From assembly GCA_009885085.1 (NCBI GenBank), contig VFLK01000009.1, forward strand, positions 3,810 through 67,809: a DNA stretch of 64,000 bases. The letters are read 5' to 3'. Numbering within the stretch: the first letter of the stretch is position 1; every line of letters starts with the position of its first letter. The notes under the pieces were generated by a model. The model ran no database searches. It saw nothing but the letters and a program-made list of their open reading frames with translations, and was not told the origin of the DNA. Positions 13,389 to 52,200 of the stretch are shown in pieces. Position numbers and translations under genes: made by a program. This DNA is from Minisyncoccota bacterium (GTDB taxonomy: Bacteria; Patescibacteriota; Microgenomatia; UBA1400; PJMF01).

Positions 13389-15428
13389 GTGTATATGTCA
13401 AAACTATTTAAAGCTAGTTTGTTTGTATTTGTTATCTTCTCAATTATTTTCATACCCTCAAAAGCCTGGGCAAAATCATATTCGATTGATCAAGTTCAGA
13501 TAGAAGCTGAAGTTTTCGAAGATGGATTAATGAGCGTTAAAGAAAAGAGAGACTATAATTTTTCTGGTGATTATTCGTATGCGTATGAGTATATTTATAA
13601 ATTTCCAGATCAAGAAAAAAGTCCTGGAAGAACTACTCCATACTTATTAAATAATTTCAAAATCTGCGAAACCGGTGGAGTCAAAAATAATTGTTATCAG
13701 GAATTAACAGATTCTCAAATTGATTTGGAAAATCCGAAGAATAATCCTGTCAATAGTTTTTTTGTTGCTGATCAAGGCACTAGATATTATATTCAGTGGA
13801 ATTATTCGGCTCAAAACGAAGTGAAATATTTTGAGATTTCTTATGATGTTACCAATGCGGTAACACTTCATGCGGATGTTGCCGAACTTTATTGGCAGTT
13901 TATTGGATCTCAGTGGGAGATGCCTCAAAAAAACATTCTAGTAAATCTGAGTTTTTCAAATTCAATTAATGGAAACGATTTAAAGGCATGGGCTCACGGA
14001 CCGCTTGAAGGTGAGGTTGCAATATCTGAGTCAGTTAATGAGCCAAAAGTTACTTTTAAGGTGCCGGGAACTGTAATTGGAGAATTTGTTGAGGCCAGAA
14101 TTCTAATGCCAAAAGAATATTTTTCTGATGGAGCAACTGGAAACAGTGATAGAGCAACAATTCAAGGTCAGGAAGAAACTTTTATTAAAGAGACGATTGA
14201 TAGTAAGAAAAAAACCGCAGTATTACAAATTCTTTTTTTTGTGATAATTTTGGGAATTTTTGCATTGATAGTTTATAAATTTATTAAGCAAGTTAATTTA
14301 TTCTTAAAATATGGAAAGGATGATCCACTTCCAACAGTAAATGCGCCTGGAACTCTTTGGGAACCACCAAGCGATATTGATCCAGCTCAAATAGAGCAAC
14401 TTATATCTGGAACCAAAAACATAACTCCAAAGGCATTTACAGCAACTGTTCTATCGTTGGTTCAAGACAGATATTTTAAGTTTGTAAGAAGTGATCAAAA
14501 AGAGGGTTTATTCACTAAAAATTATAAATACTATCTAGAACCTTTTAATCAGAAACAGTCATATTTAATTCAACCAGTTAAAACAATTTCTTCAGTTCAG
14601 CAAGAAGTCATGCGTTTTTTGTTAGAGAAAGTTGGTTTAAAGAAAGTGACTGTTGAGGGCAAAGAAAGAGATGTTATTTCATTAGATGCAATTGTTTCAT
14701 GGTCAAAGAATCATCAAATCGAAAGTCAGACATTTTTTAAATCTTTGAAAGAAACTACCTTTAAAGAGAATCTTTTAGAGGGCTATTTTAATCAAGAGTC
14801 TCATAAAAATAAAACTAAAGTAAATGGCGGAATCGTAATTGGACTAAGTATTTTGTTACTACTTTTTTCTTTCGCGGTGATCCCAGCAATTTTTAGTACT
14901 TTTAGTAGCGATTTAAGTTATATGTCTATTGCAGTTGCGAGTGGTCTTTTTGGATTTGTAGGAATGGTTTTGGGAATAATTCTTGCGATTATAGGTGAGT
15001 TTGGAGAAAAACGAACACCTAAGGGAAGTGAGGAGGCTGCGGAGTGGTTGGCTTTTGGCAAACATATGCGTAATTACAAAAAGACTGCTAAGTATGAGAT
15101 TGATTCAATAGTTATTTGGGAGAAGTATTTGGTTTATGGAACTTTACTTGGGGTCTCGGCAAAAGCTTTGTCACAGTTACCAATTAAGTTTACTCAGGCT
15201 GATGCCATGATTGTTTCTTCTTATTGGGGCGGAAGAACATTGTCTACTAGTGGATCAGTTGCTGGATTGAATGATTTGTCCTCGGCTATAAATAGTGTAA
15301 CTACGGCGATATCTAGTATTAATCAATCTGCCACAAGTAGCTATGGAGCTTCCGGTTCCGGTTCATCCGGAGGGTTTTCTGGAGGTGGAGGAGGCGGTGG
15401 AGGTGGAGGAGGCGGTGGAGCTGGCTGA
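13389..15428 (+). CDS. DUF2207-family membrane protein with a poly-Gly C-terminus
   Basis: Signal peptide, large extracytoplasmic domain, central and C-terminal TM helices, and a C-terminal SGSSGGFSGGGGGGGGGGGGGAG tail typical of DUF2207. Confidence 0.75.
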   Translation: MYMSKLFKASLFVFVIFSIIFIPSKAWAKSYSIDQVQIEAEVFEDGLMSVKEKRDYNFSGDYSYAYEYIYKFPDQEKSPGRTTPYLLNNFKICETGGVKNNCYQELTDSQIDLENPKNNPVNSFFVADQGTRYYIQWNYSAQNEVKYFEISYDVTNAVTLHADVAELYWQFIGSQWEMPQKNILVNLSFSNSINGNDLKAWAHGPLEGEVAISESVNEPKVTFKVPGTVIGEFVEARILMPKEYFSDGATGNSDRATIQGQEETFIKETIDSKKKTAVLQILFFVIILGIFALIVYKFIKQVNLFLKYGKDDPLPTVNAPGTLWEPPSDIDPAQIEQLISGTKNITPKAFTATVLSLVQDRYFKFVRSDQKEGLFTKNYKYYLEPFNQKQSYLIQPVKTISSVQQEVMRFLLEKVGLKKVTVEGKERDVISLDAIVSWSKNHQIESQTFFKSLKETTFKENLLEGYFNQESHKNKTKVNGGIVIGLSILLLLFSFAVIPAIFSTFSSDLSYMSIAVASGLFGFVGMVLGIILAIIGEFGEKRTPKGSEEAAEWLAFGKHMRNYKKTAKYEIDSIVIWEKYLVYGTLLGVSAKALSQLPIKFTQADAMIVSSYWGGRTLSTSGSVAGLNDLSSAINSVTTAISSINQSATSSYGASGSGSSGGFSGGGGGGGGGGGGGAG

Positions 15429-16367: not shown

Positions 16368-17582
16368 TTATTTTTCTAGTTCTGCTTGAACAAAATTTCT
16401 AGATTCAGCCCAGTTATTTGCTCCAGATCTTGGTACGATAACGTATTGTCCAGAGCTAGATTTAGATGAAGTGAAAACATTGGCTGTGCTAAGCGTGATA
16501 TTGATAATTTTATAATCTTTGGCTTCTAGTAACCTTGGAGCTAGTTGTTTAATAGAATCGATAGTTAGGTTTGTGTCTGTATGAGCGATCATTTGTTTGA
16601 AAAATCCTGGAATATTTTTGAGGGCTTCTAACTCAAAAAGTCTGTCTTTGATTCCAAGAAGCAATGCTTGTTGTCGTTGGCTTCTGTCAAAATCTCCTCC
16701 AGCAGAACCATGACGTGATCTAACATAGGCTAGAGAATCACCACCATCCATGATATTAATTCCTTTGTCGAAGTGAATATGCTCATATCTACACTCAAAC
16801 TTTTGTTCAAGCTGAAAACCTGATAGTTGTGAACTTAAACTCGCAACTTCTTCAGGACTTTTGCCACAAATATCCTGTTCTTTTCCTCCGATTGGATACC
16901 ATGGGTCGTCTAAAGTTTCGGGAACATCTACTTTGATATTTTTTAGTTCATAACCAATTGCTCTTTTAAAACCATTGAAATCTATTGAAATAAACCTATC
17001 AATTTTTAGACCAGTTACCGCTGAAACCATTTGCGCGCTCACACCAGCTCCTGAGATAATTGGGTCTTTTTTGTCGCCCAAGCTGAAAGCTTGATTGATT
17101 TTACTACTTGTTCCATTTGGCAGGGTTATCCATAAATCTCTTGGAATAGAGATGAAGGCAACTTTTGAATTTTCAAAATCAAGGTGAACGACTTGAATGA
17201 CATCAGTTAGAAATCCACCGCTATGTCCTGCACCACCATACCCTAGAAGCAAAATATTTAGTGAATTTTCATCATTTGCGAGGGTTTCATCAAATTCATA
17301 TGTTTCATCTTGAACCGCCAAAACTTTTTGCTCGTTATCTATTGTTTCAAAGCTTTCTTGTTTTTGACCTGATAAATAGGTATAGGTTGTTACAGTCGAA
17401 GCTAAAATGAGGATCAAACCTAAAAGAAACAAAGTTTTTGATTGCTTATTTTTGAAAATAGAATTTCTTAATTTATTAAGAACTAATTTTAACTTCATCT
17501 TTCTATATTCTACATTAGACTTGGTTAAAATTGAGTATAATTTTATTTTGTCCAAGACCATTAGATTTCTCAGCAAATTCAA
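16368..17582 (-). CDS. LytR-CpsA-Psr (LCP) family cell-envelope phosphotransferase
   Basis: N-terminal TM helix; NILLLGYGGAGHSGGFLTDVIQVVHLDFENSKVAFISIPRDLWI LCP core. Confidence 0.85.
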   Translation of the reverse strand: MNLLRNLMVLDKIKLYSILTKSNVEYRKMKLKLVLNKLRNSIFKNKQSKTLFLLGLILILASTVTTYTYLSGQKQESFETIDNEQKVLAVQDETYEFDETLANDENSLNILLLGYGGAGHSGGFLTDVIQVVHLDFENSKVAFISIPRDLWITLPNGTSSKINQAFSLGDKKDPIISGAGVSAQMVSAVTGLKIDRFISIDFNGFKRAIGYELKNIKVDVPETLDDPWYPIGGKEQDICGKSPEEVASLSSQLSGFQLEQKFECRYEHIHFDKGINIMDGGDSLAYVRSRHGSAGGDFDRSQRQQALLLGIKDRLFELEALKNIPGFFKQMIAHTDTNLTIDSIKQLAPRLLEAKDYKIINITLSTANVFTSSKSSSGQYVIVPRSGANNWAESRNFVQAELEK

Positions 17583-38893: not shown

Positions 38894-39706
38894 ATGCCGA
38901 AAACCGATTTAAGTTCTAAAAATTCATTTTCTTTTTCAAGTTTCACTAACTTTTTTTCAGAAAATTTTGTATTAATATTAATGGCTCTAGCCTTTTTATT
39001 TGGTGGATTCTTCTTAGGATCTATTTGGACAGAAAATAAAATGCTAAAAAGTGGATTCGGATCTGGTTCTGGAGTCGGCGCTGGTGCCGGTGCCGGTGCA
39101 GCAGATCCAGCAGCAGCAGCTCCAGCAGCTGATGCAAGAGATTTGACTATTCCTGGCCTAATAAGCAAGGGCAAAAAATTAGGAATAAAGGAGGCTGATC
39201 TTCAAACCTGTATCGATAGTGGCGAGATGGCCGCAAGAGTCACTGCTGATGCAGCTGGTGGTGCAGCCGGTGGTATCACAGGAACTCCTGGCACAGTAAT
39301 CGTCGTAAATGGTGTTCCAGCAGAATTAATTCCTGGAGCTTTGCCATACGAGCAAGTTAAACCAATGATTGATTTCTATGTAAATGGTGGCGCAATCGAT
39401 CCAGTTAAAAGTGGTCCAGTAGCAGGAATGCCAGCCGTAACAGATGCTGATCATTACAAAGGTAAATCAGGTGTTAAAATAGTTTTAGTTGAATACTCAG
39501 ATTATGAATGCCCATTCTGTGAGAGATTTCACCCAACTATGCTAAATGTAATGAAAGATTACAGTAAAGATGTTGCTTGGGTATTAAGAAGTTTCCCATT
39601 ATCATTCCATGCATCAGCTCAAAAGGCTGCTGAAGCTGCAGAATGTGTAGCTAAATTAAAGGGAAATGATGCCTTCTGGGAATATTCAGACGCATTATTT
39701 AACTAA
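38894..39706 (+). CDS. Membrane-anchored DsbA-like thiol:disulfide oxidoreductase
   Basis: N-terminal TM helix, Gly/Ala-rich linker (GSGSGVGAGAGAGAADPAAAAPAA), thioredoxin-fold CPFC active site (YSDYECPFCERFHP). Confidence 0.8.
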   Translation: MPKTDLSSKNSFSFSSFTNFFSENFVLILMALAFLFGGFFLGSIWTENKMLKSGFGSGSGVGAGAGAGAADPAAAAPAADARDLTIPGLISKGKKLGIKEADLQTCIDSGEMAARVTADAAGGAAGGITGTPGTVIVVNGVPAELIPGALPYEQVKPMIDFYVNGGAIDPVKSGPVAGMPAVTDADHYKGKSGVKIVLVEYSDYECPFCERFHPTMLNVMKDYSKDVAWVLRSFPLSFHASAQKAAEAAECVAKLKGNDAFWEYSDALFN

Positions 39707-41544: not shown

Positions 41545-41826
41545 TCAAATTTAGCCAAAAACTATTTTCCAAGCGCCATCATGATCATTTGTTTGAAGGC
41601 ATCAAGAATGGCTTTTAGTGCTACAGCAATCCATCTAACAATGAATTTTATTGTGCCATCAGCAAGGTTAGTTGATCTTTTTTTGAACTCTGGAGAATTT
41701 ACAAAGTTTTGAAATCCTGGTGTTTGTTCATTTTGCATTTGCATAAGTTATTGGTAATTATAATGGGTGTTTTGTAATAAGGCAATGATTTATTATAATC
41801 TTAAGATAGATTATAATTCCACTTAT

Positions 41827-43785
41827 ATGAAACCAGATGAACTTAGAAATCTATACTTAAACTCATTCAAAAAGAATAGTCATCAAATCGTTCCATCTTC
41901 TTCGATGGTTCCTGAAAATGATCCAACTACGTTATTTACTGGATCTGGTATGCAACCAATGATGGAGTATTTACTTGGCGCAAAACATCCAAAAGGGACG
42001 AGAATTGTAGACAGTCAAAAATGTTTTAGATCTCAGGATATTGAAGAAGTTGGTGACAATAGACACACAACTTTTTTTGAAATGCTTGGGAACTGGTCTT
42101 TTGGAGATTATTTTAAAGAAGATCAGCTAAAATGGTTTTTTGAGTTTCTGACTAAAGATGTAGGACTAGATCCAAAAAAGCTTTTCATCACTGTTTTTAG
42201 AGGTAACGATAAGCTCGAGATAGGAAAAGACGTTGAATCAGTTGAAATTTGGAAGAAGATTTTTGCCACTGTTGGAATTGAAGCAAAAGATATTGATTTT
42301 TCGGAAAAAACAGGTTTGCAGAACGGCAGGATTTTTTATTATGACGAAACCAAAAACTGGTGGTCAAGAGCAGGTATTCCTGACAAGATGCCAGCCGGTG
42401 AGCCAGGCGGTCCAGACAGTGAGGTCTTCTACGATTTTGGAGCTGACAAAAAAATACACGAAAATTCTCAATTTAAAGATCAAGTTTGTCATGTAAACTG
42501 CGATTGCGGTCGATTCTTGGAGATTGGCAACAATGTCTTTATGCAGTTTCAAAAACAAGCAGACGGCAGTTTCAAAGAGCTTGCCCAGAAAAATGTTGAT
42601 TTTGGCGGAGGTTTTGAAAGAATTTTAGCTGTCAAAAATAATATTGACGATGTTTTTCAAACTGCTTTATTTGAGCCAATTATTGCATTTTTGGAGAAAA
42701 TTTCAGGTAAAAAATATTTAAAAAGCGATGCAACAAGTGGCACAGGAAAAACTGGCGCCCCAGACCGTGGCCTAGCTGGTGGCGCAGATCGAGGTAGCGC
42801 ACAAGGCGGAGCTGAAAAAACCAAACATTCATTCCGAGTGATTGCCGATCATATGCGCGCTGCAGTAATGTTAGCTGCCGATGGTGTTTATCCTTCTAAC
42901 AAAGAACAAGGATATTTTGCTAGAAGATTGGTTAGAAGATCGATTAGATATGCAAAAATGATCGGTATAGACCAGCTTTTTGTTGCCGATTTAGTTCCAG
43001 TAATTGTTGAAATCTACAGTAGCTCATATCCTGATGTGAATAAAAAGTTAGTTCAAATCCAAAATGCTTTGGCTCAAGAGGAAAATAAATTTGCAAAAAC
43101 CATAGAAAAAGGTCTTAAAGAGCTTGAAAAATATCAAGAAATGACACCGCCAGTAGCACTTGATGGCGCAATTGCTTTTAGATTGTATGAGACTCATGGT
43201 TTTCCTTTTGAGCTTACTCAAGAAATTGCTCAAGAAAAAGGTCAGAAAATAAGCCTGGAGGAATTTGAAAAAGCTAAGAAAAATCATGCAGACAAGTCTA
43301 GAGATGCCTCATCTGATAAGTTTAAAGGTGGTTTGCAAGATAGTAGCGTTCAAACCACAAAATATCATACGGCCACTCATTTGCTTCATGCAGCATTACG
43401 AAAAATGTTAGGAAAGCATGTTCAGCAAAAAGGTTCGAATATAACTGTAGATAGATTGAGATTTGATTTTTCACATCCTGAAGCACTTACTCAGGATGAA
43501 AAAATTCGTGTTCAAGATCAAATTAACGAATGGATAGATGCTGCTCTACCCGTTAAGGTCGAACATTTAAAGAAAAGTGATGCTTTGGAATCTGGAGCAA
43601 TTGCATTTTTTATTGAAAAATATCCTGATGAAGTTACGGTTTACACAATTGGAAATGGCGACGAATGGATTTCAAAAGAATTTTGTGGTGGTCCTCACGT
43701 CAAAAACACGTCTGAAATTGGTAAAATCGAAATCTTCAAGGAGAAGGCAGCCTCTGCCGGAGTTCGAAGACTTTATCTCAAATAA
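41827..43785 (+). CDS. alaS: Alanine--tRNA ligase (AlaS), short form lacking the C-Ala domain, with a GC-rich Gly/Ala-rich insertion
   Basis: HQIVPSSSMVPENDPTTLFTGSGMQPMMEYLLG class II motif region, editing-domain HTATHLLHAALRK...CGGPHV zinc motifs; the protein ends right after the editing domain; the ORF-track N-terminal extension is rejected in favour of the ATG at 41827. Confidence 0.9.
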   Translation: MKPDELRNLYLNSFKKNSHQIVPSSSMVPENDPTTLFTGSGMQPMMEYLLGAKHPKGTRIVDSQKCFRSQDIEEVGDNRHTTFFEMLGNWSFGDYFKEDQLKWFFEFLTKDVGLDPKKLFITVFRGNDKLEIGKDVESVEIWKKIFATVGIEAKDIDFSEKTGLQNGRIFYYDETKNWWSRAGIPDKMPAGEPGGPDSEVFYDFGADKKIHENSQFKDQVCHVNCDCGRFLEIGNNVFMQFQKQADGSFKELAQKNVDFGGGFERILAVKNNIDDVFQTALFEPIIAFLEKISGKKYLKSDATSGTGKTGAPDRGLAGGADRGSAQGGAEKTKHSFRVIADHMRAAVMLAADGVYPSNKEQGYFARRLVRRSIRYAKMIGIDQLFVADLVPVIVEIYSSSYPDVNKKLVQIQNALAQEENKFAKTIEKGLKELEKYQEMTPPVALDGAIAFRLYETHGFPFELTQEIAQEKGQKISLEEFEKAKKNHADKSRDASSDKFKGGLQDSSVQTTKYHTATHLLHAALRKMLGKHVQQKGSNITVDRLRFDFSHPEALTQDEKIRVQDQINEWIDAALPVKVEHLKKSDALESGAIAFFIEKYPDEVTVYTIGNGDEWISKEFCGGPHVKNTSEIGKIEIFKEKAASAGVRRLYLK

Positions 43786-43791
43786 CAAGTT

Positions 43792-43833
43792 GCTCTTCTA
43801 TTTTAGTCAATAATTTGCTTTAATTAAAGACAG
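43792..43833 (+). terminator. Imperfect hairpin + short T-tract; possible terminator after alaS
   Basis: agctcgattaatcgaagagct inverted repeat followed by gttttatttt. Confidence 0.3.
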
Positions 43834-43881
43834 TAAGCTCGATTAATCGAAGAGCTGTTTTATTTTAGTGGATTTAATTAT

Positions 43882-46215
43882 ATGGACTTGCCCAACCTAT
43901 TCTCAACAAATTCAGATAAAGAAACTCAAGTGATGACTATTTTCATTCATTTGACTGATATCAAAATTCAATCATTTTTGCTTTCAATTTCAGATGAGGG
44001 CGTTAAAATTTTGGGAAAATCTAGTGTTGCTGGATATGAGGGAGTTGATAATTGTCTGGTAAGAGTTGACGAAAGTTTGCAACAGCTTGGTAAAGAATCT
44101 GAAAAAGTCAGCTCAGTCATTTTTGGTCTAAATCATGCCTGGGTCAAAAAGGGTGAGGTTAATGAGGATAAAAATCCTTTATTAAAAAAGCTCACCGATG
44201 ATTTGGGTTTAAAGCCAATGGGTTTTATTGTAATTTCTGAGGCTCTTGTTCAACAAAAAATTTCTAACAACTCGATGTTCTCTGGAATAATTGCAGTTTT
44301 TAGCGAGAAGAATTTGACACTTTCATTAGTTCATCAAGGTAAGGTTAAATCTATAGAAACCGTGGGAAGATCATCTGACGGCAAAGGTGATTTTCTTGAG
44401 GGGTTAGCACGATTTTCAGCTAAATCGGAAAAAGACGGTTATTATTTACCATCAAAAATAATTATTGCCTCTCTCGATCTTGATGAAAAAGATCTTAAGA
44501 AACATCAACAATTTATTTATGATTCTGATTGGACTGCTCAAGCTCAGTTTTTACAACCTCCAACAGTGGAAATAGTTGCTCAAAAAGATTATGAAGAAAT
44601 GATCACTAAAGAAGCCGCCAAAGCAGTTGCTTTACAAAAAGGTATGACAAAAGCCGCCTTGGCTGTAATCGCAACCAGAGATTTAGGAGCCAAAGAACCA
44701 ACAGAACTTCATACAGACGAGCTTGGATTTAGTGAAGTTAATTCAGATTTAGATTCTGAATTAGAAACAGGGGATGAAACTATTGATGATGTAGCTGTTG
44801 CCCCAACTTCATTTGGAGTACCTATTTCTACAAAAGATTTTGATAAAGAGCTTACTTCAATTAGTGACAGAAACCTAAAAGAGCCAGATTTTGAGGAAGA
44901 TAGTGAGTTGGCTGTAGATTTTTCTGGTAAAGAGGCTGAGGTTGATGATCAAGATTACGGAGAAACAAAGCATATTTTTGATAAAAATAGATCTCAGGAT
45001 GATATTGGTGGAAAAATTGTTGCATCAAATAAAACAAAAAAACATTATAAAAATTTTAAACTTTATACTTTGGTTGGGTTCATCGCTGGTTTAATTGCTT
45101 TGTTAGTTATTGGTTTTTTTGGAATTACCAACTTAGCAGTTGCAAAGGTTAATGTAGGTCTAGAACCAATTTCAATTTCCAAAGATTTAACAATTACTTT
45201 GGATACCTCAATTTCAGAAACCGATAGCGAAAAACTAATTTTGGCTGCAAATAAGGTTTCTAGGACGGCAAAGTCTGAGAGTAGTATGCAAACTACAGGA
45301 GTGACAATCGTTGGCGAGAAAGCTAAGGGAAAAATAAAAATCTATAACAATTTAGTAGCAGCTGAAAAACTATTAACTAAGGGCACATTGTTAAGTGCGG
45401 GAGATGTAAAATTTGAACTCGATGATGACGTCACTGTTCCATCAGCAAGTTCTTCTAGGCCTGGACAGTTAGAACCAGGACAGATTGATGCCTCGGTGAC
45501 AGCAACAAAAATAGGAGCTGAAGGAAATATTGTAGAAGATACTGAGTTAGTAGTTTTGCCTTTTGATAAAAGCTCATACTACGCAGTCGTGATTGATGAT
45601 GACTTTGTTGGTGGTTCAAGCCGTGAAGTAAAGGTCGTTTCTGAGGCAGATAGAGTTGAGTTACTTGCCGATTTGAGGAAGGAGATTATTGAAGAAATTA
45701 ATAAAGGGTTCCAGGATGATTCTGGAAATGGTGTATATATTTTGCCATCTAAAAAAATTGTAGCTGAGGAAGTTAAATTTAATTTTGAAGTTGGGAATGA
45801 AGCAGAATCTTTATCACTTAATTTAACTTTAGAAATTGAAGCAATCAAGTATACCTCAGAAGATTTAAAACCACTGGCAACTAAAGTTTTAGCTTCAGAA
45901 ATACCTGAAAATTATAAGTTATCTGACGATGATCCTCAAATATTGTCTGCTCCAACCGAAAATGACCTAAAAACATTGGATACTACTAAGCCAGTAACTT
46001 TGTCTGCAAATATTAGTTCTTTTGCAATACCAGTAATTACAGAAGAGACAATCAAAGATCAAATTTTAGGAAAATCTGTTGAAGAAGCCAAATCATTACT
46101 TGAGGCAAAGGACGAAATCAAAACTGTAGAAATTACAATCGATCCTTCATTCGCTAGGTCTCTAGTTAAAAAAATACCTGGAAAATTGGAAAAAATAAAG
46201 GTCGAGTTTAAATGA
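43882..46215 (+). CDS. Large bitopic hypothetical protein (~390-aa cytoplasmic N-domain, 1 TM, ~360-aa extracytoplasmic C-domain) coupled to a sortase
   Basis: 777 aa; TM helix YTLVGFIAGLIALLVIGFFGI near residue 395; the N-domain has weak actin-like (FtsA/PilM-style) strand patterns without a canonical phosphate-binding Gly; its stop overlaps the sortase ATG (ATGA). Confidence 0.5.
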   Translation: MDLPNLFSTNSDKETQVMTIFIHLTDIKIQSFLLSISDEGVKILGKSSVAGYEGVDNCLVRVDESLQQLGKESEKVSSVIFGLNHAWVKKGEVNEDKNPLLKKLTDDLGLKPMGFIVISEALVQQKISNNSMFSGIIAVFSEKNLTLSLVHQGKVKSIETVGRSSDGKGDFLEGLARFSAKSEKDGYYLPSKIIIASLDLDEKDLKKHQQFIYDSDWTAQAQFLQPPTVEIVAQKDYEEMITKEAAKAVALQKGMTKAALAVIATRDLGAKEPTELHTDELGFSEVNSDLDSELETGDETIDDVAVAPTSFGVPISTKDFDKELTSISDRNLKEPDFEEDSELAVDFSGKEAEVDDQDYGETKHIFDKNRSQDDIGGKIVASNKTKKHYKNFKLYTLVGFIAGLIALLVIGFFGITNLAVAKVNVGLEPISISKDLTITLDTSISETDSEKLILAANKVSRTAKSESSMQTTGVTIVGEKAKGKIKIYNNLVAAEKLLTKGTLLSAGDVKFELDDDVTVPSASSSRPGQLEPGQIDASVTATKIGAEGNIVEDTELVVLPFDKSSYYAVVIDDDFVGGSSREVKVVSEADRVELLADLRKEIIEEINKGFQDDSGNGVYILPSKKIVAEEVKFNFEVGNEAESLSLNLTLEIEAIKYTSEDLKPLATKVLASEIPENYKLSDDDPQILSAPTENDLKTLDTTKPVTLSANISSFAIPVITEETIKDQILGKSVEEAKSLLEAKDEIKTVEITIDPSFARSLVKKIPGKLEKIKVEFK

Positions 46216-47153
46216 AAACGCAACCAAAGACCGTTGTAATGCAGAACGACATAATAGATCTTTATAGAAACGCTTTACGACAAGGAATTGAAATATCTCA
46301 AGTAGAAAAGAAAATTAACCATCATCTTAAGAGGTTGAGTGCAAGTGATAGTATCGAAAATCAAGAGGATGAGTTGAGGTCTGAAAACGAAATAAAACGA
46401 TTACCAAAAATTGTGAGAGTGGGTGCAATGTTGTTGCCAATTTTATTTTTGATAATTGGTTTTTATTTGGTAGGTAGCGCTGTGGTCCCGATTATTGGAT
46501 CATATATGATTGTTGCTAAAGATGTTCAGACTACTAATCTTACTTCTCCAGTGCCTCTAGATCAGGTAATGGATGTTACTCCTCTAGTAATCACGCAAAC
46601 TAACACCCCAGAAAAAGTTGATAGAGACCTGGAAATTATCAACGAAGAATTAGATTATACAAATCTGTCCAATTGGTTTAGTTCGTCAACACTGCCAGAA
46701 TTTGGTTTGCCAGAGCTAGACTACAACATCACTAAATATATGATTGATATTCCTAAACTAAAAATCAGTAACGCTATTGTTAGTGTTGGTGGTAATGATC
46801 TTAAGGAAAATCTCATTGCTTTTAAGGGCACTGCTTTACCTGGGAGTCCTGGTTCTCCAGTAATTTTTGGTCATTCGGTTCTTAGACAATTTTATAATCC
46901 GAGTGAGAAAAATCCTCGAAGATATAACTCTATTTTTAGCACTATCATGACCTTGGAAACTGGTGATAAAATATTTGTCACATCTGGGGGAGTGAAGTAT
47001 ACATACGCTGTTTCACTAAAGAAGGAAGTTAAACCTGAGGATGTGTACATTTTGACCCAGAAATATGATGCCAAGCAACTTAAATTAGTTACATGCACAC
47101 CTGAAGGAACTTATTTACGTCGTGGAGTTGTGACGGCTCAACTGATAGAATAA
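46212..47153 (+). CDS. Sortase-family transpeptidase
   Basis: N-terminal TM anchor; catalytic triad context VIFGHSVL (His), KLVTCTP (TLxTC Cys), YLRRGVV (Arg). Confidence 0.7.
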   Translation: MKTQPKTVVMQNDIIDLYRNALRQGIEISQVEKKINHHLKRLSASDSIENQEDELRSENEIKRLPKIVRVGAMLLPILFLIIGFYLVGSAVVPIIGSYMIVAKDVQTTNLTSPVPLDQVMDVTPLVITQTNTPEKVDRDLEIINEELDYTNLSNWFSSSTLPEFGLPELDYNITKYMIDIPKLKISNAIVSVGGNDLKENLIAFKGTALPGSPGSPVIFGHSVLRQFYNPSEKNPRRYNSIFSTIMTLETGDKIFVTSGGVKYTYAVSLKKEVKPEDVYILTQKYDAKQLKLVTCTPEGTYLRRGVVTAQLIE

Positions 47154-47193
47154 GGGAGGTTTCTTAAATTAAACATATAAATCTTTCACATTT

Positions 47194-47359
47194 GGACAAG
47201 CCAAAAGCGCTCAAGATTTACATGTTTAATTTAAATTTTTTTGTAAGAACTAAATGTAAAAGTTTTAGGTGGGACAAGCCCAAAAGGTTCGAAGTTTATA
47301 CTATATTTTTAAATTATTAAATTTAAAAAGCCAAAAATTGTTCGTAGTTCAAATATCTA
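47194..47359. repeat. Three imperfect ~30-bp direct repeats in the sortase-ruvX intergenic region
   Basis: ggacaagccaaaagcgctcaagatttacat (47194-47223), ggacaagcccaaaaggttcgaagtttatact (47272-47302), aaaagccaaaaattgttcgtagttcaaatatcta (47326-47359); spacing ~65-75 bp. Confidence 0.5.
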
Positions 47360-47474
47360 TTTTTTTGAAATTAACTAAGAATAAAATATTAGAACAGCGA
47401 ACATTCAGGACTTGTTCCTGCGAGAGCTGGTAAAATATTTTATACTTAGAAACTTTTGAGAAATTTAGAAAATT

Positions 47475-47882
47475 ATGAACAACCCGGAAGATTCAATATT
47501 AGCAATTGATTTTGGAACTGTGAGAATTGGTTTGGCAATTTCAAGGTTTATTTTGGCAGAACCATTGGAGATAATTCCCAATGATGACTCAAAATTTTTG
47601 AAAATTAGAGAAATTTGCGAAACGAATAATATTAAAAAAATCATTGTTGGTGTGTCAGAAAATGAAATGGCAAGGATGACTAAAGTTTTTGCAATTGAGC
47701 TCGAGGCAGAAATTAAATCTAAATGGGAATATAAGCCAGAATTAGAGTACATGGATGAAACTTTAAGTTCTCACACTGTTCATGAAAGATTAAAGTCAGC
47801 TAAAAAATCTAAAAGAAATTCGAACATTGATCATTATGCTGCAGCAGTTATTTTGCAAGATTGGTTGGACGAGAACTATTAA
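47475..47882 (+). CDS. ruvX: Holliday-junction resolvase-like RuvX/YqgF
   Basis: ILAIDFGTVRIGLAIS N-terminal RNase H-like motif; 135 aa. Confidence 0.85.
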   Translation: MNNPEDSILAIDFGTVRIGLAISRFILAEPLEIIPNDDSKFLKIREICETNNIKKIIVGVSENEMARMTKVFAIELEAEIKSKWEYKPELEYMDETLSSHTVHERLKSAKKSKRNSNIDHYAAAVILQDWLDENY

Positions 47883-48018
47883 GTGTACATTTAATTTATC
47901 AAACTCGATTTCGCAGATTTAAAAAAAATTACTTGTACTCTTTAGAGTATAAATCTTCGCTTCATTAGGCTTAAAAAATAAAATGTATATCTAAAAATAT
48001 TAAAATTTTAAAGGAAAT

Positions 48019-49011
48019 ATGGCCAAAAAAATGTCTAAAAAAAGCACTATTTTAATTGCAGCTATTTCACTTATTGCCGTAATGGTCATTTTAGTAATGC
48101 TCTACTTGAATTCATTACTGAAGCCTCTTGACGTAAATTCTACTCAACCAAGCAGATTTGTTGTTCCAAAAGGCCAAGCAATTTCAATTATTGGCAAGAG
48201 ATTGCAAGAAGAAAAACTTATAAAAAATTCATATGCATTCAGATTTATTGTTGCTAAAGATAAGTTAGAGAACAAAATTCAAGCAGGTTCATTCGATCTT
48301 TCAGCTAGTATGAGTGTTGGTGAAATTGCCAATCATTTAACAACTGGTACCGAAGATGTTTGGATTACATTATTAGAGGGATGGAGAATCGAGGAAATTG
48401 CAGAAAATTTAGAAAAGCAGGATCTAGACAATTTTGATAAAGAAGAGTTTGTTGGTTTGGCAAGTTCTAGTGAAGGCATGCTTTACCCAGATACTTATTT
48501 AATTCCTCGAGAAATGTCCAGCGAGCAAATCTATAATTTGTTGTTGAATACCTTTGATTTGAAAGTTGTTCAGGGATTATCGGAAGAGATTAAGGCTTCA
48601 GGTAGAGATTTTGATCAAGCTCTGATTATGGCTTCGCTAGTTGAAAGAGAGGCAAATAACTATGAGCAAATGAGGAGAGTAGCTGGAATCTTATGGAATA
48701 GAATCGATATAGGCATGGCGCTTCAGGTTGATGCAACCTTACAATATGTTAATGGTTATAATTCTGTTCAAAAAAAATGGTGGGCTGTTCCAACTGCTGA
48801 AGATAAAAGGCTAAAATCGCCATTTAATACATATTTAAATACCGATTTACCTCCAAGACCGATCTCAAATCCTGGAATCAACGCAATCAAAGCCGCATTA
48901 ATTCCTTTAGAATCTGATGATTTTTTCTACATTCACTCAGATGATGGTACGATGTACTATGCCTCAACTTTAGAAGGTCATAACGCAAATGTAAACGAAT
49001 ACTTGCGCTAG
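48019..49011 (+). CDS. mltG: Endolytic murein transglycosylase MltG (YceG family)
   Basis: N-terminal TM helix and a YceG-like domain (GSFDLSASMSVGEIANHL...LIMASLVEREA). Confidence 0.85.
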   Translation: MAKKMSKKSTILIAAISLIAVMVILVMLYLNSLLKPLDVNSTQPSRFVVPKGQAISIIGKRLQEEKLIKNSYAFRFIVAKDKLENKIQAGSFDLSASMSVGEIANHLTTGTEDVWITLLEGWRIEEIAENLEKQDLDNFDKEEFVGLASSSEGMLYPDTYLIPREMSSEQIYNLLLNTFDLKVVQGLSEEIKASGRDFDQALIMASLVEREANNYEQMRRVAGILWNRIDIGMALQVDATLQYVNGYNSVQKKWWAVPTAEDKRLKSPFNTYLNTDLPPRPISNPGINAIKAALIPLESDDFFYIHSDDGTMYYASTLEGHNANVNEYLR

Positions 49012-49124
49012 AGTAAAATACTTGTTATAATACTCAATTCAGTGTACTAAATAATAGTGGGGCTAAATTCTTGAGTACCGTAAAGTACGTCAGTTCAGGT
49101 GCATTACTCTAAAAAAATAACAAG

Positions 49125-49156
49125 GGGAGCGACTTTTGTCAGTCTCTCCATTTTTT
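49125..49156 (+). terminator. Candidate intrinsic terminator downstream of mltG (upstream of rpoB)
   Basis: Imperfect hairpin ggagcgac-tttt-gtcagtctctcc followed by attttttag. Confidence 0.4.
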
Positions 49157-49220
49157 AGTTTAAAAGCCAGATTAGCAGCCCCCAACTAGATTAAACAAAC
49201 TATAATAGCAAGGGAGATTC

Positions 49221-52200
49221 ATGTCACAAACCAAGCGTCAAAATTGGGGTCAATCACACTCAATTCTACCAGAATTAGATTTGATTAAACTTCAAATCGA
49301 CAGTTATAAAATCTTTTTAGAAACTGGAATTAGAAAGTCATTAAGCGAAGTTAATGGTGAAAAAGGAATAGAAGATTACACAGGAAAAAATTGGGCGCTA
49401 AAGTTTGGAGAATATAGATTTGGAAAAGCAAAATACTCAGTTACTCAAGCAAAAAATAAAGGAGTAACTTACGACATGCCTCTTTACGTTGAGGCAACAC
49501 TCATCAATAAAAGAACAGGTGAAGAAAAAACTCAAGAAGTTTTCTTGGGCGATATTCCTAAAATGACCAAAATTGGTACCTTTATTGTTAATGGTATCGA
49601 ACGTGCAGTTGTTACACAATTAGTAAGATCTCCAGGTGTTTTCTTTGGCGGTGCCTTAGAAAGAACACAAGGCAGACAACTTTTCAATGCAGAACTTAGA
49701 CCAAAAAGAGGTTCATGGATTGAAATTTCTGTGGGTAAGAGAGATGTCATTACAGTTAAAATTGATCGTAGAAGAAAAATGCCTGTAACAGTTTTATTGA
49801 GAGCGTTGGGCTATGGATCTGATCAAGAGATTTTAGATTTACTCAAAGCTGAAGACTCAATTGATGAGCTCAATTTACTTCAAAATACAATCGATAAGGA
49901 TGCTACCAAAACACAAGAAGAAGCTTTAATTGAAATTTACGAAAAAATGAGACCTGGAGAGCCAGCAGTTTTAGAAACTTCAAGAGAATACTTCAAACAA
50001 TTATTTTTTGATTCAAGAAGATATGATTTAGCAAAAGTTGGAAGATACAAACTTAATAGAAGATTGAAGCTCGATGTCGATAAAGACACAACTATTTTGA
50101 CCCAAGAAGACATCGTCGCAGCTGTTAAATACTTAATTAGATTACAAAATGGTGAAGGCAAAGTTGATGATATTGACCATCTTAGCAACAGAAGAGTTCG
50201 CCAAATTGGTGAGTTAGTCAAAGAGTCTGCATTCAGAATTGGTCTTATTAGACTAGAAAAATCAATTAGAGAAAAAATGTCTTTGACAAAAACTGAAGAA
50301 GTTTTGAGTCCAGCAGCATTAGTTAATGCTCGCCCACTTATCGCTACAATTTCAGAATTTTTTAGACGTAATAGATTGTCAACAATTTTAGATCAAACTA
50401 ATCCTTTGTCTGAAATCGATAACTTAAGACGTTTATCTGTTATGGGTACAGGTGGTGTGACCAGAGAACGCGCATCATTTTCTATGCGTGATATCAATGC
50501 GTCTCAATACTCACGTATCGATCCGGTTAGATCTCCTGAAGGTCCAAATATTGGATTGGTTACTTATCTTTCACTCTACACAAAGGTGAATGATTTTGGT
50601 TTCTTGGAAGCTCCATATAGAAAAGTCGTTAATGTTAACGGAAAAATGCAGGTTCAAGATGAAATTATTTATTTATCTGCAGACGAAGAAGAAGACTACA
50701 AAATCACTCACGCAAGTGTTGATATTGATAGCAAAGGATTCATTCAAGACGAATGGGTCGCTATGCGTTATATGAACAGTTTTGCAGAAGGTCCAGTAGA
50801 ACAAGCACAATATATTGATGTTATTCCAAATCAAGTTATTGGTACTTCAGCATCATTGATTCCTTTTATTGCTAATGACGAAGCTAACCGTGCACTTATG
50901 GGTACCCATATGCAATGTCAAGCAGTTCCTTTAGTAAAACCACAGGCTCCAATTGTTGGAACAGGTATGGAAGCAGCAGTTGCTTCAGCTATGGGAAGAA
51001 CAGTTAAGGCTATAAATGCTGGAGAAGTTACCTATGTAGATGCAAATAAAATTGAAATTTTAACATCAAAAGCAGATTCTAAAAAAGCTGACGAGATGTC
51101 TGAAGATTTCGATGAAATGTACACACATGAAAATGGAAAAGACGTTTATAACATTACAAAGTTTATTAGAACATCACAGAGTACATGTTACTCACAAAAG
51201 CCAATTGTAAATGTTGGTGACAAAATCAACGTTGGAGACGTCATTATTGATGGACCAGCTGCTGATGGCGGTGAGTTAGCACTTGGTAGTAACTTAGTTA
51301 TTGCTTATGCTTCATTCGAAGGTTTGGGTTATGAAGATGCTATCGTTATTTCTGATAGATTAGTTAGAGAAGACATTCTTACTTCAGTTCAAATTAATGA
51401 ATACAAAGCAAAAGTTATGGACACTAAGCTTGGTGCAGAAGAATTAACAAATGATATTCCAAACGTTTCTGAAATTTATTTGAGCAACTTAACACTGGAT
51501 GGAATCATCCGTGTTGGAAGCATCGTTAGTTCTGGAGACATCTTAGTTGGAAAAATCGCTCCAAAAGGTGAGACAGAGTTATCACCAGAAGAGAGATTGC
51601 TTAGAGCAATTTTTGGAGAGAAGTCTAGAGAAGTTAGAGATACATCATTAAGATTGCCTCATGGTCAGTCAGGAACTGTTATTGAAGTTTCAGTTTTGGA
51701 CAGTGATCTTGGAGATGAACTCGATCCTGGAACTCTTAAAGAAGTTGTCGTTAAAGTCGCACAAATTAGAAAAATCACAGTTGGAGATAAGTTGGCTGGA
51801 CGTCACGGTAACAAGGGTGTTATTTCAAAAATAATTCCTGTAGCAGATATGCCACACACGCAAGATGGCACTCCAGTAGACATTATTATTTCACCACTTT
51901 CAGTTTTGGCACGTATGAACTTGGGTCAGCTTTTGGAAGCACATGCTGGCTGGGCTGCTCAAAAATTGGGTTACAAGATTGCAATTCCTGCTTTCGAGAG
52001 TTTCAATGAAAAGAAAATCTGGGAAGAATTAGGAAGAGCTGGATTACCAGTTTCTGGAAAAGCACAACTTATTGATGGCAGAACAGGTGAATTATTCAGT
52101 GAAGCAACAACTGTTGGCATAGGATACATTCTCAAACTGTCACACATGGTCGAAGATAAAATGCATGCAAGATCTACCGGTCCATACTCATTAGTCACTC

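Follow-up and report, generated by a model that had tools for sequence, protein, structure and literature searches.

A sortase and a large membrane protein with predicted actin and baseplate J folds are encoded side by side in Pacebacteria and Woesebacteria

A 64-kb stretch of the Minisyncoccota contig VFLK01000009.1 (assembly GCA_009885085.1, positions 3,810 to 67,809; hereafter the window) encodes a sortase directly after a bitopic membrane protein of 777 amino acids, here named BIG. The two genes form an obligate pair in the loci that we sampled, and the proteins would make up a fixed two-protein module in the Pacebacteria/Woesebacteria branch of the candidate phyla radiation (CPR). The reading that fits best makes BIG a scaffold or stabiliser, trans-membrane and without enzymatic function, for the sortase of this lineage, and we give it a probability of roughly 0.4. 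An earlier note on this DNA had named a partner or scaffold as one option for BIG, and it is favoured here by the strict pairing and by the absence of a sorting signal in 74 orthologues.

43882..46215, + strand: BIG, bitopic membrane protein of 777 amino acids (open reading frame)
46212..47153, + strand: sortase of 313 amino acids (open reading frame, Pfam PF04203)
46212..46215, + strand: ATGA, in which the stop codon (TGA) of BIG overlaps the start codon (ATG) of the sortase
47164..47243, + strand: terminator-like hairpin with a U-run, 10 nt past the sortase stop (22-nt arms, 95% complementary)

To our knowledge nothing is known about how a sortase works in the ultrasmall and uncultured Microgenomates. 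Here a whole protein family is locked to one sortase subfamily in every sampled locus, and it combines an apparently dead actin-fold domain with a phage baseplate J domain, folds that have not previously been linked to sortases. Should BIG prove to be a scaffold of the sortase, these enzymes would have a second type of accessory factor besides SafA, without structural relation to it, and BIG would also be a case of the cell envelope having taken over a structural protein from phages.

The pair across genomes

We scanned one genome per GTDB species for BIG and obtained 80 loci, 77 of them with sufficient downstream sequence. The sortase followed directly after BIG in 77/77 species representatives, the gap having a median of 2 nt and a maximum of 105 nt, and 38% of the loci overlapped (-4 in 16 loci, -1 in 7 and -8 in 5). 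A metagenome scan that started from the sortase found BIG directly 5' in 70/70 loci. The earlier note had proposed conservation in relatives as a check on the pair, and the synteny was strict in both directions. Insertions longer than 300 nt were absent between BIG and the sortase (0/77), as compared with 8/72 between alaS and BIG (Fisher p = 0.002) and 16/65 between ruvX and yceG (p = 1e-6); between the sortase and ruvX there were 4/73, a borderline difference (p = 0.054). In three loci (L091, L137 and L154) ruvX is lost or inverted and the pair is kept.

Both open reading frames of the window and their shared stop and start were found where they had been placed before, with a Shine-Dalgarno-like AAAGG at 46197-46201, about 10 nt 5' of the sortase ATG. 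The overlap alone is weak evidence for coupling, since short gaps are frequent throughout this compact cluster (the sortase and ruvX, for instance, are separated by a median of 15 nt). The AT-rich hairpin past the sortase has a folding energy of -21.7 kcal/mol (z = -4.0 against shuffles), is followed by the U-run AUUUUUUU, and probably marks the 3' end of a BIG-sortase two-gene unit in the source organism. It lies within a sortase-ruvX spacer of 321 nt, which is unusually long compared with the relatives.

The closest database records carry the names Candidatus Pacebacteria, Candidatus Woesebacteria or Patescibacteria, and it is from the Pacebacteria and Woesebacteria labels that the lineage may be episymbiotic, as the earlier note had supposed. 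One pair-bearing locus, L075, comes from a complete genome of 853 kb (CP011212.1) titled "candidate division TM6 bacterium GW2011_GWF2_28_16", although it has the same gene order. Other pair-bearing loci in the set encode AlaRS, MltG, sortase and BIG proteins with 70-85% identity to those of L075, and on these grounds, protein identity and gene order, the TM6 label looks wrong.

Architecture of the two proteins

The sortase matches Pfam PF04203 over aa 178-311 (E 1.1e-20, 74.1 bits against a cutoff of 26.6). Among the NCBIfam models the generic sortase model TIGR01076 alone passes (44.4 against 39.35), and the hidden Markov models (HMMs) of the classes miss their cutoffs by over 100 bits (43 of the required 160 bits for class C, 35 of 165 for D, 30 of 160 for E and 20 of 166 for F). 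The enzyme is a true sortase that lies outside every curated class. Its parts are as follows, those from AlphaFold2 being predictions.

aa 11-63: cytoplasmic helical hairpin (helices 11-23 and 28-63; AlphaFold2 model)
aa 66-105: membrane helix (AlphaFold2 model)
46650-46679, + strand: motif LDYTNLSNWF in a disordered linker, aa 147-156 (conservation)
46734-47144, + strand: catalytic barrel, aa 175-311 (AlphaFold2 model)

The intact His/Cys/Arg triad and the membrane anchor that had been read from the sequence were both confirmed. In 49 sortase homologues of 52-82% identity H221, C295 (in LVTCTP) and R303/R304 never vary, conservation of the catalytic residues among 76 species representatives is 95% or more, and a hydropathy scan gives one membrane helix. 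Conservation extends well beyond the active site. Invariant in the same 49 homologues are Y18, R19, A21 and E49 in the cytoplasmic part, G71, P76, G83, A90 and P93 in the membrane helix, and D148, T150-L152 and N154-F156 within LDYTNLSNWF, and a long and strongly conserved insert, SVLRQFYNPSEKNPRRYNSIFS, follows the catalytic His.

With an AlphaFold2 model of pLDDT (predicted local distance difference test) 70, the structures found nearest by Foldseek were SrtD of C. perfringens (4d70, E 1e-9, 30% identity), SrtC of S. sanguinis (8gr6) and SrtA of C. diphtheriae (5k9a), all with E values around 1e-9 and 25-30% identity. The eight-stranded beta-barrel itself matches SrtD, SrtC, SrtA and SrtE structures with a Foldseek probability of 1.0 and a template modelling (TM) score of up to 0.74, normalised to target length. 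The enzyme shares the barrel, the triad and a TCTP-type active-site motif (LVTCTPEGT) with the sortases of class C and D, but has a single N-terminal anchor placed after a conserved cytoplasmic helical hairpin of 65 aa, and carries the insert after the His. Across 42 species the mean distance is 0.35 for its catalytic domain and 0.57 for AlaRS, a low divergence of the sortase that fits a core housekeeping enzyme. In published surveys a family of sortases was found in nearly all Microgenomates (PMC6744442).

BIG has 35 full-length homologues of 30-84% identity, none of which has a Pfam domain or an annotation other than hypothetical. When 1.84 billion cluster representatives were searched with a profile, 9702 matched at E<=1e-3, 2272 of them also at E<=1e-30, and the best 150 were mostly full length, roughly 570-825 aa. 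BIG belongs to a large uncharacterised family of thousands of 50%-identity clusters without a Pfam model, although phage J proteins may account for a part of the weak matches. The AlphaFold2 model of BIG has a mean pLDDT of 79 and is confident at aa 15-255 and 391-777, most of aa 266-390 being disordered.

43924..44646, + strand: minimal ASKHA (actin/Hsp70/sugar-kinase fold) domain, aa 15-255 (predicted by AlphaFold2 model and Foldseek)
44677..45051, + strand: acidic disordered cytoplasmic linker, aa 266-390 (pLDDT <50; 34 Asp/Glu against 15 Lys/Arg)
44809-44826, + strand: short motif SFGVPI in the linker, aa 310-315 (homologue alignment)
45055..45135, + strand: single transmembrane helix, aa 392-418, with GxxxG at G399 and G403 (AlphaFold2 model)
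45139..46212, + strand: extracytoplasmic domain, aa 420-777, putative remote homologue of the phage baseplate wedge protein J (Pfam, Foldseek)
45292-45300, + strand: invariant T-T-G turn of the extracytoplasmic domain, aa 471-473 (motif census)
45610-45627, + strand: invariant GGSSRE motif of the extracytoplasmic domain (motif census)

The model of the N-terminal domain consists of two successive beta-beta-beta-alpha-beta-alpha-beta-alpha units, aa 17-129 and 135-252, with a pLDDT around 90. Foldseek matches it to ASKHA proteins at E values from 1e-6 down to 7e-9, among them PPX/GppA (6pc0, E 7e-9), PilM (5eox), EutJ (3h1q), FtsA (7q6i) and HgdC, and to BT_3980 (3hrg, TM 0.51) and YeaZ (2gel, TM 0.50; both normalised to target length), and matches in BFVD were viral Hsp70 and actin-related proteins. 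Across 35 homologues neither Asp-x-Gly nor Gly-Gly is conserved in the loops that would carry the phosphate-1, phosphate-2 and adenosine motifs (aa 24-28, 140-144 and 197-201, that is beta1-beta2, beta1'-beta2' and the end of beta4'). The domain, only about 240 aa in the model, also has no 1C (SHS2) subdomain insertion, and Pfam finds no match to FtsA or PilM in BIG or its orthologues. With the sequence profile of alignment A1 no ASKHA protein was found among PDB chains, only spurious membrane-helix matches to VAMP2. We regard the domain as a probable pseudo-ATPase, an ASKHA core that has been left without its nucleotide-binding motifs; the actin-like domain without canonical phosphate loops that the earlier note had proposed is thereby upheld by model, fold matches and alignment.

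The single membrane helix that had been predicted for BIG is likewise seen both in the model and as one hydropathy peak (aa 397-415). Its GxxxG is present in 53/74 orthologues, and alignment A1 shows no variation at G399 and G403. The flank on the N-terminal side of the helix is rich in Lys, which places the N-terminus inside and the C-terminus outside. The motif SFG[IV]PI of the linker is invariant in the 35 closest homologues, yet present in only 41/74 species representatives, and another cytoplasmic motif, MDLPNLF, is found in only 23/74. Their partial distribution made us reject both as universal docking peptides.

The outer half of BIG had been described as having no recognisable motif, which does not hold. 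It weakly matches Pfam Baseplate_J (PF04865) at E 0.004, with 16.9 bits against a gathering score of 21.1, and the match recurs at E<=0.01 in 15/35 orthologues (best 1.9e-5). The fold matches are clear: Foldseek finds the baseplates of cyanophage A-1(L) (8kea, E 8e-7) and of diffocin (8v3w, E 3e-6) over about 345 columns, and BFVD gives many "Baseplate J-like" proteins, several of them at E 4e-7 to 1e-4. There is also the invariant GG..RE motif, which we take to resemble a Baseplate_J signature. A PHROGs scan of 35 BIG orthologues gave no match, and neither did tblastn of the extracytoplasmic domain against 50,697 phage records, so that the link to the baseplate stands on the fold and the weak Pfam matches. 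No phage or contractile-tail genes (sheath, tube, gpW/gp25 or gpI) lie near the pair, whose neighbours are alaS, ruvX, mltG and rpoB in all loci. The lack of detectable phage sequence similarity and of adjacent phage genes suggests that the domain is an old cellular recruit of the J fold.

Substrates and the role of BIG

In no open reading frame of the window is the C-terminus formed by an LPXTG-like motif with a hydrophobic helix and basic tail, which agrees with what had been noted before. A C-terminal sorting signal is also missing from BIG itself (0/74 orthologues), and we rejected BIG as a canonical substrate, as a terminal hydrophobic helix with basic tail is found in none of its orthologues. 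Relatives with the pair do encode such proteins, of 160-170 aa, with a signal peptide, an Ig-like domain (Big_13), an LPE[AS]G motif, a hydrophobic helix and a basic tail (Pfam Gram_pos_anchor E 0.0015), and in L066, L172 and L173 their genes lie 5-12 kb 5' of the pair.

L066, 152-637: LPE[AS]G Ig-like protein
L172, 10001-10519: LPE[AS]G Ig-like protein
L173, 10001-10504: LPE[AS]G Ig-like protein
L173, 3729-4238: LPE[AS]G Ig-like protein

The sortase most likely has conventional substrates. The earlier note had suggested a non-canonical substrate or recognition motif, and this is not supported, since relatives with the same pair encode classic LPE[AS]G proteins and make such a substrate needless. 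In some relatives the LPE[AS]G genes occupy two conserved positions, pfkB-X-AAA and ftsK-X-comFC-like. The proteins have a near-invariant Lys (K47, in TVKTY or SLKSY, [TS][VL]K[TS]Y) that could be a pilin-type nucleophile.

We propose the following. The sortase, catalytically intact by sequence, would act on Sec-exported proteins with LPE[AS]G, helix and basic tail that are encoded elsewhere in the genome. BIG would be neither enzyme nor substrate, with a nucleotide-blind actin fold and a flexible acidic linker in the cytoplasm, one GxxxG helix across the membrane and a domesticated baseplate-J-like domain on the outer face. It could bind the sortase through the membrane helices, and possibly through the conserved cytoplasmic hairpin of the sortase, and so keep the enzyme stable, place it or gate it, perhaps where the wall grows. 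The contact and the positioning role are what we infer, as distinct from the folds, the topology, the loss of motifs, the linkage and the missing sorting signal.

Several lines of evidence argue for such a scaffold: adjacency is absolute in both directions, the junction is free of insertions and the pair survives a changed downstream context. BIG lacks a sorting signal while relatives hold classic substrates, and its ASKHA fold is without nucleotide motifs, as in GspL. Both proteins are bitopic with the N-terminus inside, their helices have conserved small residues or Pro, and the cytoplasmic region of the sortase is unusually conserved. SafA is a precedent for a gene-linked membrane partner of a housekeeping sortase (PMC9282373).

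GspL is a scaffold with an actin-like domain that lacks nucleotide binding, and in architecture GspL and PilM-PilN come closest to BIG, as bitopic or two-part scaffolds in which an actin-like domain in the cytoplasm is followed by one membrane helix and a domain beyond the membrane; PilM, of type IV pili, is among the top fold matches of the BIG N-domain. BIG differs in its baseplate J-like outer domain, which is not small and ferredoxin-like, and in having no 1C-type insertion. GspL is not among the top 50 Foldseek matches of BIG, and no genes of type II secretion or type IV pili, or for secretion or pilus ATPases, are found in the window near BIG. With the baseplate wedge protein J (P2 gpJ, Mu gp47, T4 gp6; PF04865) BIG shares the fold of its 360-aa outer domain and weak Pfam similarity, but it is cellular, membrane-anchored and part of a housekeeping operon that has neither phage nor tail genes nearby. 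The closest precedent in logic, as an analogy and not as membership, is SafA-SrtA of Actinobacteria, where SafA is a conserved membrane protein encoded beside a housekeeping sortase, binds it and keeps it functional in the membrane without being a substrate (PMC9282373). SafA is a small transmembrane protein, its gene lies downstream of srtA and its exoplasmic FPW motif counters signal peptidase (PMC9282373), whereas BIG is set apart by its size of 777 aa, its position 5' of the sortase gene and its domains, an actin fold and 360 aa of baseplate J-like structure. BIG lacks defining features of each of the SafA, GspL/PilM and phage J systems, in the last case the phage gene context. The Pam pilus system of the CPR is unrelated, works with chaperones and donor-strand exchange and involves no sortase. 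Our search of the literature on sortases and CPR, on baseplate J and CPR, and on sortases with actin-like proteins or PilM found no description of the BIG-sortase pair.

Several observations weigh against the scaffold. The order yqeY-rodZ-alaS-BIG-sortase-ruvX-mltG-rpoB is syntenic across the lineage in nearly all loci, and the sortase is tightly spaced also with the unrelated ruvX, for which reason adjacency alone overstates functional coupling. A mirror-tree analysis of seven proteins in 42 taxa ranked BIG-sortase highest in raw correlation (r 0.84), but the partial correlation did not single out this pair (0.33, below the 0.53 of sortase and AlaRS). The loci were retrieved by exact peptide motifs, so that one subfamily was sampled, and the two cytoplasmic motifs of BIG are kept by only a part of the family. 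It could then be that BIG and the sortase are independent neighbours in a compact and slowly rearranging housekeeping operon, a view with which the kept gene order, the tight spacing to ruvX and the non-specific mirror-tree signal agree. We consider it unlikely, as the adjacency holds in 147/147 loci and insertions occur at every flanking junction and none at that of BIG and the sortase, as the pair outlasts downstream rearrangements, and as both products are N-in bitopic envelope proteins whose two-gene unit is probably closed by the terminator-like hairpin in the window. Another reading makes BIG primarily a protein of cell division or elongation, which would be a membrane tether in the manner of FtsA and bind the wall by its outer domain, and makes the sortase a passenger in a cell-envelope operon. 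The actin-fold cytoplasmic domain, the fold matches to FtsA and PilM and the neighbours rodZ (HTH_25) and mltG/YceG would suit such a protein, and it is on these two neighbours that the division-associated role named in the earlier note would stand. Without the 1C/SHS2 insertion and the ATP-binding motifs, and with no FtsZ-type partner motif demonstrated and no division genes in the window, this is distinctly unlikely, and it would leave the absolute pairing with the sortase unexplained.

A more elaborate role for BIG is as the platform of a pilus or filament. The J-like domain would oligomerise on the outer face, at the base of a surface structure that the sortase builds by polymerising or anchoring Ig-like LPE[AS]G proteins, and the pseudo-actin domain would wire it to the cytoplasm. 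Baseplate J proteins are oligomeric wedge components of phage baseplates, the best structural and HMM matches of the sortase are the pilus-type class C and class D enzymes, and the substrates of the relatives are small, single-domain and Ig-like, with the near-invariant Lys as a possible nucleophile. Class C sortases have lids that lie ahead of the catalytic barrel, and the aromatic LDYTNLSNWF gives the impression of standing roughly in that position. If true, the pair would represent a hitherto undescribed type of machine for sortase-dependent surface assembly, with which the cell might attach to its host. We find it unlikely, since no pilin genes adjoin the pair in the window, no YPKN pilin motif or E-box has been demonstrated and a second (housekeeping) sortase was not seen. 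Finally, BIG could itself be processed, the sortase cleaving at [ILM]-x-T-T-G (aa 469-473), about 55 residues outside the membrane, linking the membrane-anchored N-terminal part covalently to the wall and releasing the baseplate-like domain. G473 is invariant in 74/74 orthologues and TT present in 65/74, and in 7/74 the aligned turn is literally L[PA]xTG-like (LPTTG, VPTTG, IPTTG or LATTG), while a separate scan found L[PA]x[TSA]G in 3/74 BIG ectodomains. But position 2 is neither Pro nor Ala in 67/74, the residue that precedes the Gly in the bona fide LPE[AS]G substrates is Ser or Ala and not Thr, the motif forms the turn of a beta-hairpin in a confidently folded domain (pLDDT around 90) and no membrane anchor follows it. 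Such processing is very unlikely, and the turn, though reminiscent of a sortase site, is probably structural.

The surrounding locus

The window has a GC content of 34.5%. The genes 5' of the pair are yqeY, a rodZ-like gene (HTH_25), DUF948, YtxH and alaS, and those 3' of it are ruvX, mltG/YceG, rpoB and rpoC; neither a second BIG nor a second sortase was found in the window. A consensus scan for promoters and terminators in 43600-48100 gave counts equal to the shuffled expectation, no significant structure was seen in the spacer between alaS and BIG (z = -0.5), and an Rfam scan of 43000-49500 had no match near any gathering score.

The order alaS-ruvX-mltG is conserved in Firmicutes, and in the window this arrangement (41767-49011) is split by the BIG-sortase pair. 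AlaRS of the relatives (607-651 aa) matches the tRNA-synt_2c and tRNA_SAD domains only, and therefore seems to be without its C-terminal domain.

Two further genes of the window are of note. MdbA-type oxidoreductases fold sortase substrates in Actinobacteria, and a DsbA/Thioredoxin_4-like protein is encoded at 38894-39706, 4 kb 5' of the pair, and at the same position in the relatives L001, L005 and L006. Oxidoreductases of the MdbA type are enriched in CPR (PMC6744442). Another wall-attachment enzyme, a LytR-CpsA-Psr family protein (E 3e-29), is encoded at 16368-17582 on the minus strand, and its gene adjoins those of a two-component system and of a membrane protein with DUF2207 (13389-15428).

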